This document shows positions 95 to 17,148 of a stretch of DNA of 33,380 nt, one piece after another. The translations under genes were made by a program, and so were the position numbers. The DNA comes from a virus (lineage: Duplodnaviria > Caudoviricetes), in IMG/VR virus record IMGVR_UViG_3300025101_000088, positions 1 to 33,380 of that record. The stretch is one strand, 5' to 3'. Within the stretch, counting starts at the first letter, position 1. Every line of letters starts with the position of its first letter. The notes under the pieces were generated by a model. The model saw only the letters and a list, made by a program, of their open reading frames with translations. It was not told where the DNA came from and searched no databases.

Positions 95-625
95 TTAGCT
101 GCTAACCACCAGTTTACATAATGGGTTGCCCCAACCAACGCTGCTGGGGCTGCTGCCGCCAGCCATAGCCTTTAGTATAGGGTTTTGGTTTAGGCTGCTG
201 GTAACGCTGCTGCCGCTGTTGGCGGCAATAGCATTTACCATTGCCAATGGCACGGCGGCTGGCACTTGCGTTGGCACATTAGTTTTAAGCCAGCCAAAGC
301 TAGTTATAAACTTAGGCTTTGGCGCAATGTAGCCTTGTGCGCTAGGCTGCCAATATTTAGCTGGCAAGCCACCATTAACCATAACCCAAAGCATTTGCCC
401 AAAGTGGCCTATTGCCTTGCCGTTGGCTGGCTGCATAGCACGCCAAAAGTTAGCACCGCCCATAAGCGCATTGGCTTGCACGGCGGCTGGCAATAGCTGC
501 ACGTTAATATTGCCAATGCCATTAGCAGTAATAAACGCCTTAATAGCAAGGCTGCAATAAACGCCTTGGCTACCCAAATTTGCGGCTGTAAAAGCTGCCG
601 CTGCTTGTGTGTTTGTGTTACCCAT
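95..625 (-). CDS. Hypothetical early protein with no Asp/Glu; paralog of 1970..2428
   Basis: 176-aa ORF with SD-like AAGGGGT upstream and a terminator downstream. C-terminal GGSSPSSVGWGNPLCKLV resembles GGQSPSAKATWGNAFVELF. Confidence 0.85.
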   Translation of the reverse strand: MGNTNTQAAAAFTAANLGSQGVYCSLAIKAFITANGIGNINVQLLPAAVQANALMGGANFWRAMQPANGKAIGHFGQMLWVMVNGGLPAKYWQPSAQGYIAPKPKFITSFGWLKTNVPTQVPAAVPLAMVNAIAANSGSSVTSSLNQNPILKAMAGGSSPSSVGWGNPLCKLVVSS

Positions 626-678
626 TGGTAAACCCCTTTTTAGTTAATGCCGCCGCCCTATGCGGTGGCTACACCTAT

Positions 679-708
679 TTTATGCCATAGGTGGCATATG
701 CTTGTAAA
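679..708 (-). promoter_or_regulatory. Sigma70-like promoter with an overlapping palindrome
   Basis: Minus strand TTTACA-18 nt-CATAAA. Inverted repeat TATGCCA-TAGG-TGGCATA at 681-698. Confidence 0.5.
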
Positions 709-711
709 CCC

Positions 712-762
712 CTAAAAGCACATTGCTACAAAAATAATTACAAGCACACCTAGCAACCCCAT
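712..762 (-). CDS. Putative 16-aa hydrophobic peptide MGLLGVLVIIFVAMCF
   Basis: TAATG stop/start overlap with the upstream ORF; entirely hydrophobic. Confidence 0.35.
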   Translation of the reverse strand: MGLLGVLVIIFVAMCF

Positions 763-962
763 TAGCATTTGTGCCGCCATGCGCTTAAATAGCCAAAGCC
801 AAACAGCACCGCACCATAAACAAGCATAAAAGCATTTATGTAATGGTGGCTAAAAATAGGTGGCAGTACAAATGCGCCAGTGGCGGCAAACATTAAGGTA
901 ACGCCAGCCACCATGCATAAGGTGCAAAAAAACATATATAAATAAACCATAGTAAACCCCAT
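762..962 (-). CDS. Small two-TM membrane protein with no Asp/Glu (start possibly 950)
   Basis: Two hydrophobic segments; GGGGTTTACT precedes the ATG at 950. Confidence 0.65.
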   Translation of the reverse strand: MGFTMVYLYMFFCTLCMVAGVTLMFAATGAFVLPPIFSHHYINAFMLVYGAVLFGFGYLSAWRHKC

Positions 963-1070
963 TGGTTAGTTGCGTTATGTAAATAGCTAAAAGCTAAACC
1001 ACGCTCCGGCAAGTGGCAATGTGGTCAAACGCATCGCTGCCAGATTTGTTTATGATATGATATTATATAA

Positions 1071-1125
1071 GGGATCATCCTAATGATCGGATGGATAGAC
1101 AGTCAATCCATCCATCCATCCGTCA
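1071..1125. repeat. TC/GA-dense spacer with (TCCA)n
   Basis: TCAATCCATCCATCC at 1103-1117 is repeated exactly at 1917-1931. Confidence 0.8.
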
Positions 1126-1131
1126 GGGTAC

Positions 1132-1165
1132 AAAAAATGGTAGGGCAACCGAAGTCGCCCTACCG
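1132..1165 (-). terminator. Intrinsic terminator
   Basis: Minus strand GGTAGGGCGAC-TTCG-GTTGCCCTACC followed by ATTTTTT; C(UUCG)G loop. Confidence 0.9.
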
Positions 1166-1171
1166 CTGGGG

Positions 1172-1516
1172 TTAGCCTATTTCATGGTACGTCCAATTAC
1201 CAATAGCCATGTGTGGCATGAGGTCTGGCTCGTCACAGCTGCACCATGCCCAGCCGTTATTAGGCCGCTCCTCAAATTGGCTCCAATTACCACGGTCATC
1301 GTACCAGTAAATTATGCAGTCTTGGTTGCTCCAACTTGGCGCATCGTCCTCGTCAAAGAGCTCCTTATCGCTTTGGTAGTTAATGTACACATTACGATAA
1401 AACCGTAACCCCACAATAAGGTTGCCGACCTCTTGTATGCTGGCAGTATGCCCTACCGCCAGCCGTGTCGTAAAACTATTGTGGTGGTCAATTATATAAA
1501 CACCATACTTAGCCAT
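1172..1516 (-). CDS. Hypothetical protein
   Basis: 114-aa ORF with GGAGGT RBS, TAATG coupling to the upstream gene and a terminator after the stop. Confidence 0.8.
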   Translation of the reverse strand: MAKYGVYIIDHHNSFTTRLAVGHTASIQEVGNLIVGLRFYRNVYINYQSDKELFDEDDAPSWSNQDCIIYWYDDRGNWSQFEERPNNGWAWCSCDEPDLMPHMAIGNWTYHEIG

Positions 1517-1728
1517 TACTTGACCTCCTTTTGCTCAAGGTAAAGCATAGCTAGCTTACCTATGACGTCGCCCTTGGGTATGCTTACACTACTAAGGCCA
1601 TGCTGCACCATGAGCTCACTTTGCATAATAGCTTGCACCTGTAGCACGAGCTCGTTTTGGCGCACAGTAAGCGCAACGCCTTTGGTAGCCCCTCGTTTCA
1701 AATTACCATTAGGTATTTTATTTGTCAT
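1516..1728 (-). CDS. Hypothetical protein (small, possibly DNA-binding)
   Basis: 70-aa ORF with GAGGT RBS, coupled to the next gene. Confidence 0.75.
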   Translation of the reverse strand: MTNKIPNGNLKRGATKGVALTVRQNELVLQVQAIMQSELMVQHGLSSVSIPKGDVIGKLAMLYLEQKEVK

Positions 1729-1890
1729 TGTTACCTCGTTTTGTACCCGTTACCATTATTAGCAACAGTATTAAAGTAACACATGGTGCGTCACTGAGTG
1801 TCCTACTTGGTCACTCTGACGTCTTAAGATGTCTGGCTCTGATGTCTTTTGAGTTCATTAGTTATTGTGTATATGATAGTACATATACAC

Positions 1891-1931
1891 GAAGGATCGT
1901 CATCCATCCGTTTCTATCAATCCATCCATCC
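1891..1931. repeat. TC/GA-dense spacer with (TCCA)n
   Basis: CATCCATCCGT and TCAATCCATCCATCC are shared with 1103-1123. Confidence 0.8.
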
Positions 1932-1964
1932 AAAAAAGAAGGGCGACCAATCGGCCGCCCATCC
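1932..1964 (-). terminator. Intrinsic terminator
   Basis: Minus strand GGGCGGCC-GATT-GGTCGCCC followed by TTCTTTTTT. Confidence 0.85.
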
Positions 1965-1969
1965 TGTGA

Positions 1970-2428
1970 TTACTTGGCTGGGATAACGAACAGCTCAACG
2001 AAAGCATTGCCCCATGTCGCCTTGGCTGATGGGGACTGTCCACCATTAAGCGCGTCCAACAAAGCATGGAAGCGACGTGCTTTAATGGCGCGATGCGCAT
2101 TGTCCACGTCTGTTAAGGTGATCGGGTCCATGTGGGAGTTGATCAACTGCCAGACTACCATGCCGCGGAGCGACATTTTGGGCGACCCGTCAGCGTCCCA
2201 TAAGGTTTTCTTCTTTTCCCAAGGGAAGGGGAGCTCCGTAGCAGGGTCAACCTCAACAATGGTGCGGACGCCTACATTGTTTGGATTGCCACCAGCATGC
2301 TGCTGGACAAACGTAAAGATGTCCTCGGCAGTAACGCCTTGGGACTTGCGATCCTCAGGCAACTCATTGATACCACGAAAAACGACTTCTGCCACTTGGG
2401 ACTTTTTAACTACAGCTGATTTAGCCAT
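1970..2428 (-). CDS. Hypothetical protein; paralog of 95..625
   Basis: 152-aa ORF with AAGGAG RBS, its own promoter and terminator. Shares SQGV, G.M.W...N and GG.SPS...WGN motifs with 95..625. Confidence 0.88.
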   Translation of the reverse strand: MAKSAVVKKSQVAEVVFRGINELPEDRKSQGVTAEDIFTFVQQHAGGNPNNVGVRTIVEVDPATELPFPWEKKKTLWDADGSPKMSLRGMVVWQLINSHMDPITLTDVDNAHRAIKARRFHALLDALNGGQSPSAKATWGNAFVELFVIPAK

Positions 2429-11930: not shown

Positions 11931-12072
11931 CTCTTACCTTTATTTTCATAGGTTGATTACATTTAGAACAATGAGGCCATTTATTTTTAAGAGCACGGAA
12001 GGTCATAACTCTGCTATCCCTTCCACACTCACACTCAGCCAATACTTCTTTATCTAGCTTTTCGTTTACCAT
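11899..12072 (-). CDS. 57-aa zinc-ribbon protein (absent from the supplied ORF track)
   Basis: MVNEKLDKEVLAECECGRDSRVMTFRALKNKWPHCSKCNQPMKIKVRDAVPLVHTAD fills the gap and overlaps both neighbours; CxC and CxxC. Confidence 0.7.
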   Translation of the reverse strand: MVNEKLDKEVLAECECGRDSRVMTFRALKNKWPHCSKCNQPMKIKVRDAVPLVHTAD

Positions 12073-12463
12073 TTTGTCTCATGTATACTTCAGCTTCCAC
12101 TAGAAACAGATAACGCCGTAAGTCTCGTATATCATCCAATACACCTTCCTCACGATCATCATAAGTTATAGCTTGAAATATATCATAACCCTGCTCGGTT
12201 ACTTGTTTTTCAAGCCGATCCCATTTACGAGCCAGCATCATAAATGCACCGACACCGCCACGTTGTTTCCAACTATCACCGTAAGATTGCTCAGCTTCTT
12301 CTAACTTTACATGATCTATTACGGTGAGCTTACCAACTTGTTTTATAATAGGGCTTTGTTCTTTTGGTTGTGGTTCTTTATCTTTTACCATTACATCATA
12401 TTCCTTCCAATCCAGCTCACGCATACGGCGAATCATGTATTGTTCGTAACTTTCTCGTCCCAT
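12050..12463 (-). CDS. Nucleotide-modification-associated protein (DUF1599/Nmad1-like, all-alpha NTP pyrophosphatase-like)
   Basis: SYGDSWKQRGGVGAFMMLARKWDRLE...DDIRDLRRYL; adjacent to the thymidylate-synthase homolog. Confidence 0.7.
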   Translation of the reverse strand: MGRESYEQYMIRRMRELDWKEYDVMVKDKEPQPKEQSPIIKQVGKLTVIDHVKLEEAEQSYGDSWKQRGGVGAFMMLARKWDRLEKQVTEQGYDIFQAITYDDREEGVLDDIRDLRRYLFLVEAEVYMRQNGKRKAR

Positions 12464-13461
12464 TTTTCTCTCCTACGCTCAAGCCATTCCCAAGTGGCTA
12501 AATGCCAATCGTCAGGCTTTATGTCTGCACAATGGTCAAAAGCTAAAGCTAATTCTTTAGCTTTCCATGCTTGCCAGACTTTGTGCATAGGTTGTGCCAA
12601 ATCAGAAAAAGTGGAGTTAATATATGGTCTTGGCCTTTCAGGGTCTTCAATAAACCAACTAAGCTCTTCATCAAATGATTCTATATTATTTACAAGAGCA
12701 TCTGGCCTGATCATGCGCGTATTATAGGCTTCATAATCAGGCAGCATACCATCTAGCTTTTTTAATACTTCTGTATAAGCATGAAGATTATTACTAAACT
12801 GTGTGTATATACCAACACTCGCGCCGATACGTGAGGCTATATACTCTTGAAGAATGGACATATGGACAGCATTAGCTCCTAATGCACCCCAGATCATATC
12901 ATTACTGCGGTTGCATACTGTCATATCAAGTATATTGTCGCGCACATTAAAATAAATATGAGTATTACAAGGATGGTCTTTACAGCTATTACTCATTCGT
13001 AAATCACCTTCGGCATCCCACATTGCAAGCACCGCTCGTCTATCATTTGTATGCGTCATCAATCTATGAACGATTACATCAATTTGGTCACGATGGAAGT
13101 AATTACGCCAACGATATCCATAAGCTCCCTGTAATACTTTACCATCATCACTATACTCACTCATCCGTGCATTATAACGCTGTATCCATGCAAGGTCATT
13201 ACGCCCTGCTAACATCCACAGGCTTTCCATAAAATGAAATATAGGATTAGCATCACGCTCAGGATAAAACAGTACACGCTCGCGTGGGCTGTTGTAGACA
13301 ATGGCACATGGCTCACGGAACTCAATCGCTTTACCATTACGCGTCTCTACTTCTACACCATCTGCTTCTAATGCTTGCTTCACAACATACAGTGCTTCGC
13401 TTACATTTGTGACTGTGAAAGTATGTACACCCCTCATAGGTGCTTTACCAAATAATGCCAT
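12433..13461 (-). CDS. Thymidylate-synthase-fold dUMP hydroxymethylase (5-hmdUMP synthase)
   Basis: TRNG, AYGYRW, RRAVLAMWD, catalytic PC, RSNDMIWGALGAN (Asn at the dUMP-specificity position), NLHAY; clustered with a 5-hmdU kinase. Confidence 0.88.
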   Translation of the reverse strand: MALFGKAPMRGVHTFTVTNVSEALYVVKQALEADGVEVETRNGKAIEFREPCAIVYNSPRERVLFYPERDANPIFHFMESLWMLAGRNDLAWIQRYNARMSEYSDDGKVLQGAYGYRWRNYFHRDQIDVIVHRLMTHTNDRRAVLAMWDAEGDLRMSNSCKDHPCNTHIYFNVRDNILDMTVCNRSNDMIWGALGANAVHMSILQEYIASRIGASVGIYTQFSNNLHAYTEVLKKLDGMLPDYEAYNTRMIRPDALVNNIESFDEELSWFIEDPERPRPYINSTFSDLAQPMHKVWQAWKAKELALAFDHCADIKPDDWHLATWEWLERRREKWDEKVTNNT

Positions 13462-13488
13462 ATTAAACCGCCTTTCTATGGGGTTATA

Positions 13489-13506
13489 AAGCCGCTCGAG
13501 CGGCCT
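13489..13506. repeat. Perfect 14-bp palindrome / hairpin GCCGCTCGAGCGGC
   Basis: 13491-13504, in the gap between the radical SAM and hydroxymethylase genes; followed by TTT on the minus strand. Confidence 0.55.
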
Positions 13507-13544
13507 GAATTAACTTGCCCTAACCTACTACTAAAAGCAACCCT

Positions 13545-14564
13545 CTAGCTGTCTGAGTAGCCCTTAATAAAGTCATAATGTTTCTTTACTCTTTTGGTGT
13601 ATGTGCCTCCAGCCAATGCTTCTTTAATTGCAGTATTTGTTTCCTCCGTAGGCTCGGGTAACGTCTTACGTCCCATACGGTCAGGTAACAATCCATTACG
13701 AAGAGTGGTATTGTCACAGCCATTGCAAGGACCGAATTTACGGTCTCCGTTATACAACTTTTGCCGCGCTGCATGAAAAGCCTTCCCCTGCCATACTTCT
13801 TCTATAGGTGTATCAATTACATTGCCACACTTGTACCATCCTACCCAATCATTACAGCATATAGCAACATTACCATCCCAGCGTATAGACATCTCACGGA
13901 AAGGTTTTGCACAACGCTTACCATCTTGTTCATGGTTTAAAGGGAAAGAGTTACCAGCGTGGTTACTGACTTGTGCGTGGGTTCCGCTAGTAGCGAGCGT
14001 AAGATCAAGTCCAACAACGATATGATGTTCTGTAACCTTTCTTCGTCGGTGGGGGTTGGCGTCACGTTCAGCGGGATATTCAAATACGGGATATGGACCA
14101 TTGTATCTCTCCTTTATTTTGTCCACTATTTTTATGCGATCATAATTGTCAAGGAATAAAACATTTAGCCCTGCTTCCATCAACATATTTACACTTTTCT
14201 GTGTATCTCTTAATAAACCACCACCATTACTGGTCATCATCAAAGGTGTTTTAGGTAACTCCTGTCGGAACAGCCGTATCATATCAATAAAGAAGGGGTG
14301 CATGGTTGGCTCACCATGCATGGCAAACTCTAATCGTGGGTTCCATTTAGCTTCTTTAATGCGGCTGCAGATAGCCCTAGCCCTTTCTATCGTAAGATAT
14401 GAGTAAGGAGCAGAGGCTTTACCATGAATGTTTTGTGGACCATCGGCATTATTCTCACGTATCGCTTGTATACCGCAAAAAGAACAAGCAAGGTTACATC
14501 CCTCAGTTAATTCTATTTGTATAGAATTAGGTGGGTCTTGATAATGGTTAGATACAGTTGCCAT
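13545..14564 (-). CDS. Radical SAM protein with SPASM/Twitch domain
   Basis: CNLACSFC, HGEP, TSNG; C-terminal CAKPF..MSIRWDGNVAICCND...GNV...W...PCNGC. Start at 14564 or 14597. Confidence 0.92.
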   Translation of the reverse strand: MATVSNHYQDPPNSIQIELTEGCNLACSFCGIQAIRENNADGPQNIHGKASAPYSYLTIERARAICSRIKEAKWNPRLEFAMHGEPTMHPFFIDMIRLFRQELPKTPLMMTSNGGGLLRDTQKSVNMLMEAGLNVLFLDNYDRIKIVDKIKERYNGPYPVFEYPAERDANPHRRRKVTEHHIVVGLDLTLATSGTHAQVSNHAGNSFPLNHEQDGKRCAKPFREMSIRWDGNVAICCNDWVGWYKCGNVIDTPIEEVWQGKAFHAARQKLYNGDRKFGPCNGCDNTTLRNGLLPDRMGRKTLPEPTEETNTAIKEALAGGTYTKRVKKHYDFIKGYSDS

Positions 14565-15333
14565 CTTTAGCAGCCTTTCGCCATTGTACGCGAACATCCC
14601 AACGTGTTTTCATACCCTCCCAACCTGTTTTAGTTTCTTTCTGTACAGCTTTTACATAATCAGGAAACTTTTCAGCAAGGGCAAGGCTCGCACGTTCTTG
14701 TAACTCTGCATTGCGGTATGAACTACAGCCACCAGCAGCACCTGAAGCACCACGCTGATCCCATGTCCAATCAACAATTACAGCATTACCATGACCATGC
14801 TTAAATAACTCAAGTGTAACGTAATAATCTTCCATAAGCTCCATAGTATCATAACGTATGCCCAACCCATGAATAATTTCAGGACGTATGGCGTGAACAG
14901 CATTTTGTCGCATACCATACTTAACTGTATCAGGGAAGTGCTTATCATTCATTTGCCTTGGGCTAAGTCCCACATGAGTAAAGTTATTCAACAACCACTC
15001 CATGCGCTCCCATAACTCATGCATCTCTTCTTGATTTGTTTTTCTTAAGTTGGGAGCCAGCCCATGTATGCGGCGACCAAATATAAGATCATCATCCAGA
15101 ATAATAATTTTATCATGCTTCTGCTCCACGGCATGTTCTAATATGAACTGCCTTACATTATTGATACCTTTTAAATCACCACGATTTAAACAATACCGAC
15201 CCTGTCTCGTATGCCAGTTTACTTCATCTTGTGGGCATACAAGAACAGCATGCTCTCTGCCCTCAGGACCAATGCTTTGCCAAGTAACTTGGTTATTCAT
15301 CCTGCCCCTAGTTGGAATATATATTGGTATCAT
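14548..15333 (-). CDS. GT-A fold DNA glycosyltransferase (TET-associated / base J glucosyltransferase-like)
   Basis: IYIPTRGR, GI..VRQFI, IIILDDD (DxD), EDYYVTL, GGCS.YR. Confidence 0.82.
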   Translation of the reverse strand: MIPIYIPTRGRMNNQVTWQSIGPEGREHAVLVCPQDEVNWHTRQGRYCLNRGDLKGINNVRQFILEHAVEQKHDKIIILDDDLIFGRRIHGLAPNLRKTNQEEMHELWERMEWLLNNFTHVGLSPRQMNDKHFPDTVKYGMRQNAVHAIRPEIIHGLGIRYDTMELMEDYYVTLELFKHGHGNAVIVDWTWDQRGASGAAGGCSSYRNAELQERASLALAEKFPDYVKAVQKETKTGWEGMKTRWDVRVQWRKAAKDGNCI

Positions 15334-15629
15334 ATCTCATCCTCATCAAACCTTACTTGCCCTTCAAGCACTGCCCTTTCTAATTCTTCATCACTCATGT
15401 AATCGAGCTCAAACATCGTTTGTTTTCTTTTTGGTTTTAACACTCGTTTTCTGGTTTTGGGTTTTGGCTCTGCTTTCGGCTTCGGCTTCGGCGGCTCTTG
15501 CGGCTCTAATAGTTCCAATGTCCGATAATTGTATTTGCATTTCGGACAGTTCCTCTTCCTCCGTATTGTGCCTTGATAAGGACGACTGTCTACGACCTCG
15601 GATTTGCCATTGCATTTTGGACACAACAT
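15330..15629 (-). CDS. NrdR N-terminal-like zinc ribbon protein, no ATP cone
   Basis: CPKC...SEVVDSR.....IRRKRNCPKC...YRTLE, then a Pro/Lys linker and an acidic tail. Confidence 0.8.
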   Translation of the reverse strand: MLCPKCNGKSEVVDSRPYQGTIRRKRNCPKCKYNYRTLELLEPQEPPKPKPKAEPKPKTRKRVLKPKRKQTMFELDYMSDEELERAVLEGQVRFDEDEI

Positions 15630-15631
15630 AA

Positions 15632-16528
15632 TTACGCCACCGTCCCAATCGGAGCCTCCAGCACTGAACTCTGTAGTCCATTATACTTACTACGCGGAGT
15701 GCCTTGACCAAGCCTAACGCGCTCATATTTATCCCACTCGCATAAGCTATGTTCAATACAGCGCATATCCACCGCCAAAGTCGGGATGTGTTTGCCAAGA
15801 TAACGGTGTGAATCTTCGAGTAAATCTTGCATCTCCCTATTGCTTTGATAAGCACCTAATGCTTTTGTGAGCGGCCTATCGTGGATCCTGTTGAGGCCAC
15901 GCTTTGCTCCCGGACCAGCGTTTGCCCATTTGTATTTGTCTTCGGCTTTGGCAAGGACTGGTGTGTAGTTGAGGTCGGTAACAACCTCGTATGACATAAA
16001 ACCTCCCCCTCCCCATCCTTTATATGCCGCCAACGCTTTGTGTACTTCTTCCAACGACTGTGTTTCGGTGGCAATCTGCGCCAACGCTTCTTTGTTTTCC
16101 CATATTGGCGAAAGGAAATGGTCAACAACTACCTCCGATTTAGGTGCTTTGAGTCCTTGGTTAGTGATTATATATGCACCAGTAAAAGTCCGTAAACCCT
16201 GCTTCAACCTTTCTTCAATCAAAGACTTAGTATGCTCAGGATTAAACTCTTCTACCCAACCATGCGCTTCAGCAAACTCACTAGTTCCAACCATACGAAA
16301 CATACAACAGTTAAATATCATCTCACCATGTGGGCGGTTATCATTTGGCTTTGTCCAGTTTTGCCGCATCCAAACAGTTACCCTATCATTCTCACGGAAA
16401 GGATTTGTGAATTTATATTGTTGTAAGATAGTGTCTTCTGTCCAAGGGGCAGGAAGCCCCTTGGCTCTTTTTTGATAAATGGCATGACGCTCATTAATCC
16501 AGTAGCAGAACCTTTCTATGTTCTCCAT
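15632..16528 (-). CDS. 5-hmdU DNA kinase (aGPT-Pplase1 / 5-HMUDK helical domain)
   Basis: ERHAIY..R..G.P.PWTED.ILQQYKFTN.FRENDR, FTGAY, G.FM.YEVVTDL, GPGAKRGL, IEHSLCEWDKYER. Confidence 0.92.
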   Translation of the reverse strand: MENIERFCYWINERHAIYQKRAKGLPAPWTEDTILQQYKFTNPFRENDRVTVWMRQNWTKPNDNRPHGEMIFNCCMFRMVGTSEFAEAHGWVEEFNPEHTKSLIEERLKQGLRTFTGAYIITNQGLKAPKSEVVVDHFLSPIWENKEALAQIATETQSLEEVHKALAAYKGWGGGGFMSYEVVTDLNYTPVLAKAEDKYKWANAGPGAKRGLNRIHDRPLTKALGAYQSNREMQDLLEDSHRYLGKHIPTLAVDMRCIEHSLCEWDKYERVRLGQGTPRSKYNGLQSSVLEAPIGTVA

Positions 16529-16530
16529 AA

Positions 16531-17148
16531 TTATTCTCCTAGCTTGATAGCACCTTTTTCAATAGCAAGGCGAATATCAACACTATTGCCTCCTGGACTT
16601 AACTTTTTCATAGCAGCAAGAGCCTCACCCACTGTATCCGATCTGGTTAAGGCTTCAAAATTATGCCACCGATTACTATTTTTACGATATGGATTAACGA
16701 ACATGCCCATTGATCCTGTAGGCAAAAGTATTTTAGCATTTTCATCATACTTAGATTTTGCCACACGCTTTGGTTTTTCTGTGGCAACAGACGCAATACC
16801 CTGTGGCTCCGGCGTAATATCTACTATTTCAGCAGTCATTTGTTTCTCCTTTAAAACAGGTTTATATTTTTTAGCTCGTTCATGTACAAACTCTGCAAAG
16901 TTTTTATGAAAGCTAGGGAAATTTGGTAAGGCACACTCACCAACTGTAGCGGCAACTACACTCCGCAACTCTTCCTCACTATAGGTATCCTGTAACTGTT
17001 GAACTTCAGCAAACACAATACTATGCTCGTTTAGTTCTTTACACGCCTTTAACTCACGCAAGGATTTGAATACAAAGTAAGAGTAGGCATCGTTACGATT
17101 ACTGGTATTATCATTTTCTAACACCGCATAAGTTTTGATAGCTGCCAT
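16531..17148 (-). CDS. Hypothetical protein with a probable small C-terminal DNA-binding domain
   Basis: 205-aa ORF with AGGAGG RBS; C-terminal NPYRKNS..W..FE.....TVGE....GG...DIR....KG.IKL. Confidence 0.8.
   Translation of the reverse strand: MAAIKTYAVLENDNTSNRNDAYSYFVFKSLRELKACKELNEHSIVFAEVQQLQDTYSEEELRSVVAATVGECALPNFPSFHKNFAEFVHERAKKYKPVLKEKQMTAEIVDITPEPQGIASVATEKPKRVAKSKYDENAKILLPTGSMGMFVNPYRKNSNRWHNFEALTRSDTVGEALAAMKKLSPGGNSVDIRLAIEKGAIKLGE

Follow-up and report, generated by a model that had tools for sequence, protein, structure and literature searches.

How does a host RNA polymerase read heavily modified phage DNA early in infection? We addressed this question at two genes, V and N, in a stretch of 33,380 nucleotides (33.4 kb; hereafter the window) from IMG/VR record IMGVR_UViG_3300025101_000088, which corresponds to half of the genome, approximately 58–62 kb long, of an uncultured marine phage. 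A second record, G001 (59.6 kb), is near-identical to this phage. V lies in a region from which the dinucleotides GA and TC are missing altogether (hereafter the void) and encodes a protein without aspartate (Asp) or glutamate (Glu), whereas N is its ordinary counterpart outside the void. The analysis described below makes it likely that the void is needed for transcription and reflects a mark that the phage itself places on thymine (T).

The void takes in the whole V unit, promoter included. The next-longest gap between GA or TC steps in the window is 65 bases, and 2000 shuffles of the same bases as the void held a mean of 124 GA plus TC steps and never fewer than 100. Each of five genomes of 50–69 kb (G001–G005) carried a single void, always over V, and across relatives the void ended mostly 75–110 bases past the V stop codon (about 88 bases here). 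No comparable void was found in nine named phages, six of which have PPlase2-type genes. A small hydrophobic open reading frame (ORF) of the type seen upstream of V is present at 45 of the 58 V loci; it is GA/TC-free in some lineages and lies outside the void in others, showing that the void can spread across a second gene. Two further observations concern depleted regions. The ordinary gene at 1172–1516, which adjoins the void, is partially depleted, with 4 sense TC steps against 16 expected. In phiW-14 (L151), one strand is without TTG over the 1585 bases at 153109–154694; T is scarce there, and this gap is probably a compositional effect.

V and N had been presented as paralogs in the original prediction on the basis of three blocks aligned by eye, and the lengths and acidic-residue counts given there were reproduced. 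The V protein is basic, with nine lysine or arginine residues. Pairwise BLASTP between the two proteins gave a weak match (12/26, E-value 3e-4), and a first profile built from close V relatives only matched N with a probability of 71 over 27 columns. The V profile was later enriched with distant V genes gathered from N neighborhoods, and HHalign comparison of the two family profiles then recovered all three blocks (probability 94.3, E-value 1e-7, 129 columns); a reversed profile scored 0.07 and 100 block shuffles scored at most 2.1. When the V profile was run against five genomes, N was the next match straight after V in all five. Neither family brought up the other in database searches, and the kinship is therefore distant. 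The predicted models of V and N have the same order of helices and strands and the same target ranges in a fold search, in which both matched the same small winged-helix domains, weakly. Judged by element order and target ranges, the two proteins share a predicted fold. These results confirmed that V and N are true paralogs within one protein family, which spans relatives down to 27% identity. Family and fold searches with V and N returned no match that fixes their function.

To define the rule that V obeys, 62 distinct complete V genes were analyzed, with expectations taken from the codon use of each locus. Forty-five of them were wholly without GA and TC. Sense TC steps numbered three or fewer in 50 genes and 8–30 in the remaining 12, referred to here as relaxed. 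In the relaxed genes, synonymous sense GA was zero against 9.7–15.9 expected, a depletion matched by none of 1500 recodings of each gene; sense TC was at expectation in five of the 12 and still below it in seven. The opposite pattern, with sense GA back and TC absent, was seen in none of the 62 genes. On the V tree, the relaxed state corresponds to five changes, at least four of which are forced by well-supported branches. Thus, the fixed rule for V is the absence of TC from the template strand, on which a sense GA reads as TC. Because a gain of TC on either strand takes the same type of mutation, we infer that selection differs between the strands.

The same rule accounts for the composition of the protein. 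All codons for Asp and Glu begin with GA and are excluded by it, and the lack of these residues in V is a by-product of a rule on DNA or RNA. Asp and Glu are absent from 52 of 61 V-family proteins and number 8–19 in every one of 64 N proteins; the original prediction had proposed to look for homologs in acid-free and normal pairs. The 10 sense GA steps found in the relaxed genes all belong to in-frame Asp or Glu codons, suggesting that acidic residues return first once the rule loosens; one strict gene has a single out-of-frame GA. Across whole genomes, TC at codon junctions reached 0.69–0.79 of expectation in four genomes of the family versus 0.94–0.97 in three relatives of like layout, and GA reached 0.77–0.85 versus 0.85–1.0. 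Neither step showed a gradient across gene classes.

The pairing of V with N is conserved. N was used to fetch 160 loci from two overlapping collections, which are not independent, and V was present at 120 of them, its start lying 373–2497 bases past N. Of the 40 loci lacking V, 39 come to an end no more than 1381 bases from N; the upstream flank of the remaining one is just 52 bases long. In two loci (L073 and L307), V lies on the strand opposite to N and upstream of it; the void is retained in L073, suggesting that the V unit moves as a cassette.

Both genes are preceded by a TTTACA hexamer, as the original prediction had stated, and the two sites are conserved in relatives. GTTTACA has seven matches in G001, and only those of V and N stand immediately ahead of a gene and on its coding strand. 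As a consensus promoter scan listed neither site, both promoters are assigned from conservation. Their GA and TC contents differ sharply: V promoters carry 0.64 such steps per 61 bases (28 in 44 promoters) versus 4.9 in N promoters (371 in 75). Of the 75 distinct N promoters, 53 have TACTCT or TATTCT at 17-base spacing. In 63 of them, a TC-N5-GA palindrome stands roughly 11 bases before the -35 hexamer; none of the 44 V promoters has it. TC is thereby fixed in N promoters both in the -10 hexamer and in the upstream palindrome. Other genes often carry TAGAAAGG ahead of their start; the ribosome site of V is mostly a GA-free run of G, and GGAG is kept in 6 of the 62 genes.

Each gene was also said to end in its own terminator. 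This was borne out for N, which has a canonical one, and in part for V: in the window's clade, its hairpin is strong, with a poor U tail, and was not called by the terminator scan. Two GA-dense patches lie past terminators (Table 1); the window mean, given for comparison with no formal null, is 3.3 sense GA per 50 bases. Such patches are TC-dense on the template strand and possibly act as modification-dependent stops. A further GA-dense patch occupies 2560–2690, upstream of the N promoter.

Table 1. Positions of the features discussed in the text, in window coordinates.
Feature	Position	Strand	Description
GA/TC void	6-1004	both	no TC on either strand; TC at 5, then TC at 1005; 999 bases
V hairpin	54-86	minus	arms 54-66/74-86, 13 bases; only three U behind
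V	95-625	minus	176 amino acids, 0 Asp/Glu; predicted winged-helix-like fold, loop insertion at about residues 85-124
Candidate V promoter	679-708	minus	TTTACA 708-703, 18 bases, CATAAA 684-679; GA/TC-free; conserved in relatives
Small hydrophobic ORF	762-962	minus	upstream of V, inside the void here
GA-dense patch	1070-1125	minus	past terminator 1164-1139, just upstream of the void; 9 sense GA in 56 bases
GA-dense patch	1885-1935	minus	directly past the N terminator; 9 sense GA in 51 bases; kept in many relatives
N intrinsic-terminator-like hairpin	1941-1960	minus	from terminator scan
N	1970-2428	minus	152 amino acids, 17 acidic (9 Asp, 8 Glu); predicted winged-helix-like fold
Candidate N promoter	2485-2513	minus	TTTACA 2513-2508, 17 bases, TACTCT 2490-2485; conserved in relatives
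TC-N5-GA palindrome	2525-2533	both	TC on each strand; upstream of the N -35 hexamer
Thymidylate synthase homolog, YuA/PaMx11 type	12433-13461	minus	41-45% identity to YuA, PaMx11, phiJL001 and Sonora enzymes
Radical SAM/SPASM protein	13545-14597	minus	family match
TAGT-family glycosyltransferase (PF20691)	14548-15333	minus	family match
aGPT-PPlase2-type protein (PF18723)	15632-16528	minus	PF18723, E-value 5e-52

A modification operon spans 12050–16528 of the window. Judging from its sequence, the thymidylate synthase (TS) homolog is likely a deoxyuridine monophosphate (dUMP) hydroxymethylase. The TS, radical SAM, TAGT and PPlase2 genes were present in all 12 genome stretches examined; PF18723 was found in 5 of 5 and in 14 of 36 records, and in 6 of 6 of those at least 90% complete. 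Three known 5-hydroxymethyldeoxyuridine (5-hmdU) kinases, searched against 5 and then 12 genome stretches, gave a best E-value of 0.11, although a very distant kinase could escape this search. The co-occurrence with 5-hmdU kinase operons raised in the original prediction therefore extends to the TS and PPlase2 genes and not to a P-loop kinase. Papers are cited here by PubMed Central (PMC) number. In the 5-hmdU hypermodification phages M6/YuA, PaMx11, ViI, phiW-14 and SH-Ab 15599 (PMC8989533, PMC6449724, PMC13458397), a TS of the dUMP-hydroxymethylase type and aGPT-PPlase2 are shared with the present phage and TC is a reported target; here, by contrast, TAGT and radical SAM/SPASM genes are present and no P-loop kinase was found. 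Six hypermodified isolates that were checked had no void and no match to V. PPlase2 combined with TAGT and radical SAM/SPASM and without a recognizable kinase possibly represents a new route to a new modified base. The 205-amino-acid ORF at 16531–17148, beside the PPlase2 gene, has a highly conserved C-terminal segment of 55 residues and is absent from 2 of the 12 genome stretches.

What is known of modified T bears on how these features may fit together. Restriction data located hypermodified T at TG or TC (PMC6449724, PMC13458397), and conversion of virion DNA in specific contexts precedes packaging (PMC8989533). Bulky C5 groups on uracil block bacterial RNA polymerase while plain 5-hydroxymethyluracil (5hmU) is tolerated, and phosphorylation of 5hmU turns transcription off (PMC4838386, PMC11550810); PMC6449724 leaves to future work the question of how modified T affects transcription. 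We propose that T within TC steps is decorated by the phage and that such marks, when they sit on the template strand, would hinder the host RNA polymerase, through stalling or a failed start. The V unit, with a TC-free template, would then be the sole unit readable on entry, and V would be made before N. V, predicted to be a winged-helix protein, would act on DNA or on the polymerase such that the decorated genome becomes usable, N promoter included, and N, the unconstrained and better version, would take over once it can be made. We put the probability of this whole chain, from the mark on T in TC to N taking over, at roughly 0.55. What the original prediction had observed is confirmed overall, and its interpretation, that the constrained copy is made first and allows expression of TC-containing DNA, is partly supported.

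Several points weigh against this proposal. The usual P-loop 5-hmdU DNA kinase was not found in the 12 genome stretches; the additional void on the non-template strand (sense TC) in 50 of the 62 V genes is unexplained by a template-strand rule; other phages with hypermodified DNA get by with no void; and the synthetic groups used in PMC4838386 caused no elongation block.

V might have to be readable at once for a job other than transcription, such as blocking a host defense, coating or protecting incoming DNA, or recruiting an activity that strips the mark. The earliest-made phage proteins often counter defense, no family or fold match ties V or N to a function, and the void at times extends over the ORF for a membrane peptide, all of which would suit such a job. 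However, this explanation by itself leaves the transcription of the remaining TC-rich genes unaccounted for; the 45 proteins of the window included no recognizable RNA polymerase or sigma family, and the fixed TC sites in the N promoter suggest a regulatory link. V also lacks the Asp and Glu of usual metal catalysis. We consider a different job of this kind rather unlikely.

A rule acting on RNA, in which a ribonuclease cutting at GA destroys other messages and spares that of V, would agree with the near-invariance of sense GA, which is missing from all 62 V genes bar 11 single sites, and with a ribosome site mostly moved off GGAG. It is nevertheless improbable, given that the void includes the promoter, upstream of the likely transcription start, that most V genes lack sense TC as well, and that codon-junction TC is under-used genome-wide in this family relative to its relatives. 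Even less probable is a mark on G or A within GA steps, in place of T, that takes effect on the non-template strand. Sense GA and template TC are indistinguishable by sequence, and phage CAjan carries preQ0 at GA and GGC (PMC7544227); yet no DpdA or deazaguanine synthesis family was found among the 45 proteins of the window (the other half of the genome lies outside it), and thymine-pathway genes are present. A rule on translation, with V made while the supply of Asp- and Glu-transfer RNA is cut, would match the acid-free V and acid-containing N proteins but is largely refuted and very improbable, as GA is absent also from the two other frames and outside the ORF, and relaxed lineages regain it solely as Asp or Glu codons.

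The proposed chain, in which V makes a decorated genome usable, can be extended. DNA decoration might serve as a genome-wide transcription lock, with V reading the decorated TC-N5-GA palindrome and letting the polymerase start at and pass decorated T, which would switch on N and the remaining genes. TC-dense patches behind terminators would then halt transcription in a decoration-dependent manner, as a phage analog of base J. We offer this extension tentatively. The likeness to base J lies in these patches and in a TAGT-family glycosyltransferase, which we take to be akin to JGT. Neither V nor N matched the J-binding domain. In kinetoplastids, a glucosyltransferase acts on hydroxymethyluracil and base J is linked to transcription termination; it is eukaryotic, sparse and read by JBP proteins, unlike the proposed phage mark (PMC8616854).

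Together with base J, T4 MotA and AsiA are the nearest systems by function: they are early phage proteins that enable host RNA polymerase at promoters on bulky modified DNA, and MotA forms a double-wing saddle (PMC6755090). MotA was not among the matches in the family and fold searches with V and N, by sequence or by fold. We know of no recoded, modification-free twin in T4. In T7 and T5, the first-entering DNA is free of restriction sites, a pioneer region purged of a motif for early expression; that motif is the 6–15 base site of a host enzyme. The present case differs in that a two-base step is tied to the phage's own enzymes, is strand-biased and costs two amino acids. A full-text search of incomplete coverage found no literature on modification-context voids; PMC12686479 and PMC13326640 concern other systems.

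Among annotated phages, DSL-LC04, 023Pt_psg01 and pelagiphages HTVC023P/027P have the primases closest to that of the window. The gene for the large terminase lies directly downstream of V. In the interval between them, just past window position 1, a conserved element (L001 3170–3260 and relatives) contains a TGTAC...GTACA inverted repeat and C-run/T-run tracts, and is a possible packaging or promoter site. Ten of 73 loci end 94–139 bases past V.

The locus offers a candidate solution to the reading of heavily modified DNA early in infection, together with a candidate factor in two versions, from sequence alone. It suggests in which sequence context, and on which strand, an as yet unmeasured modification is likely to lie. 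V and N also constitute a natural experiment in protein design, in which one predicted fold occurs with and without Asp and Glu. A factor that enables polymerase on modified DNA would have practical value as a reagent.
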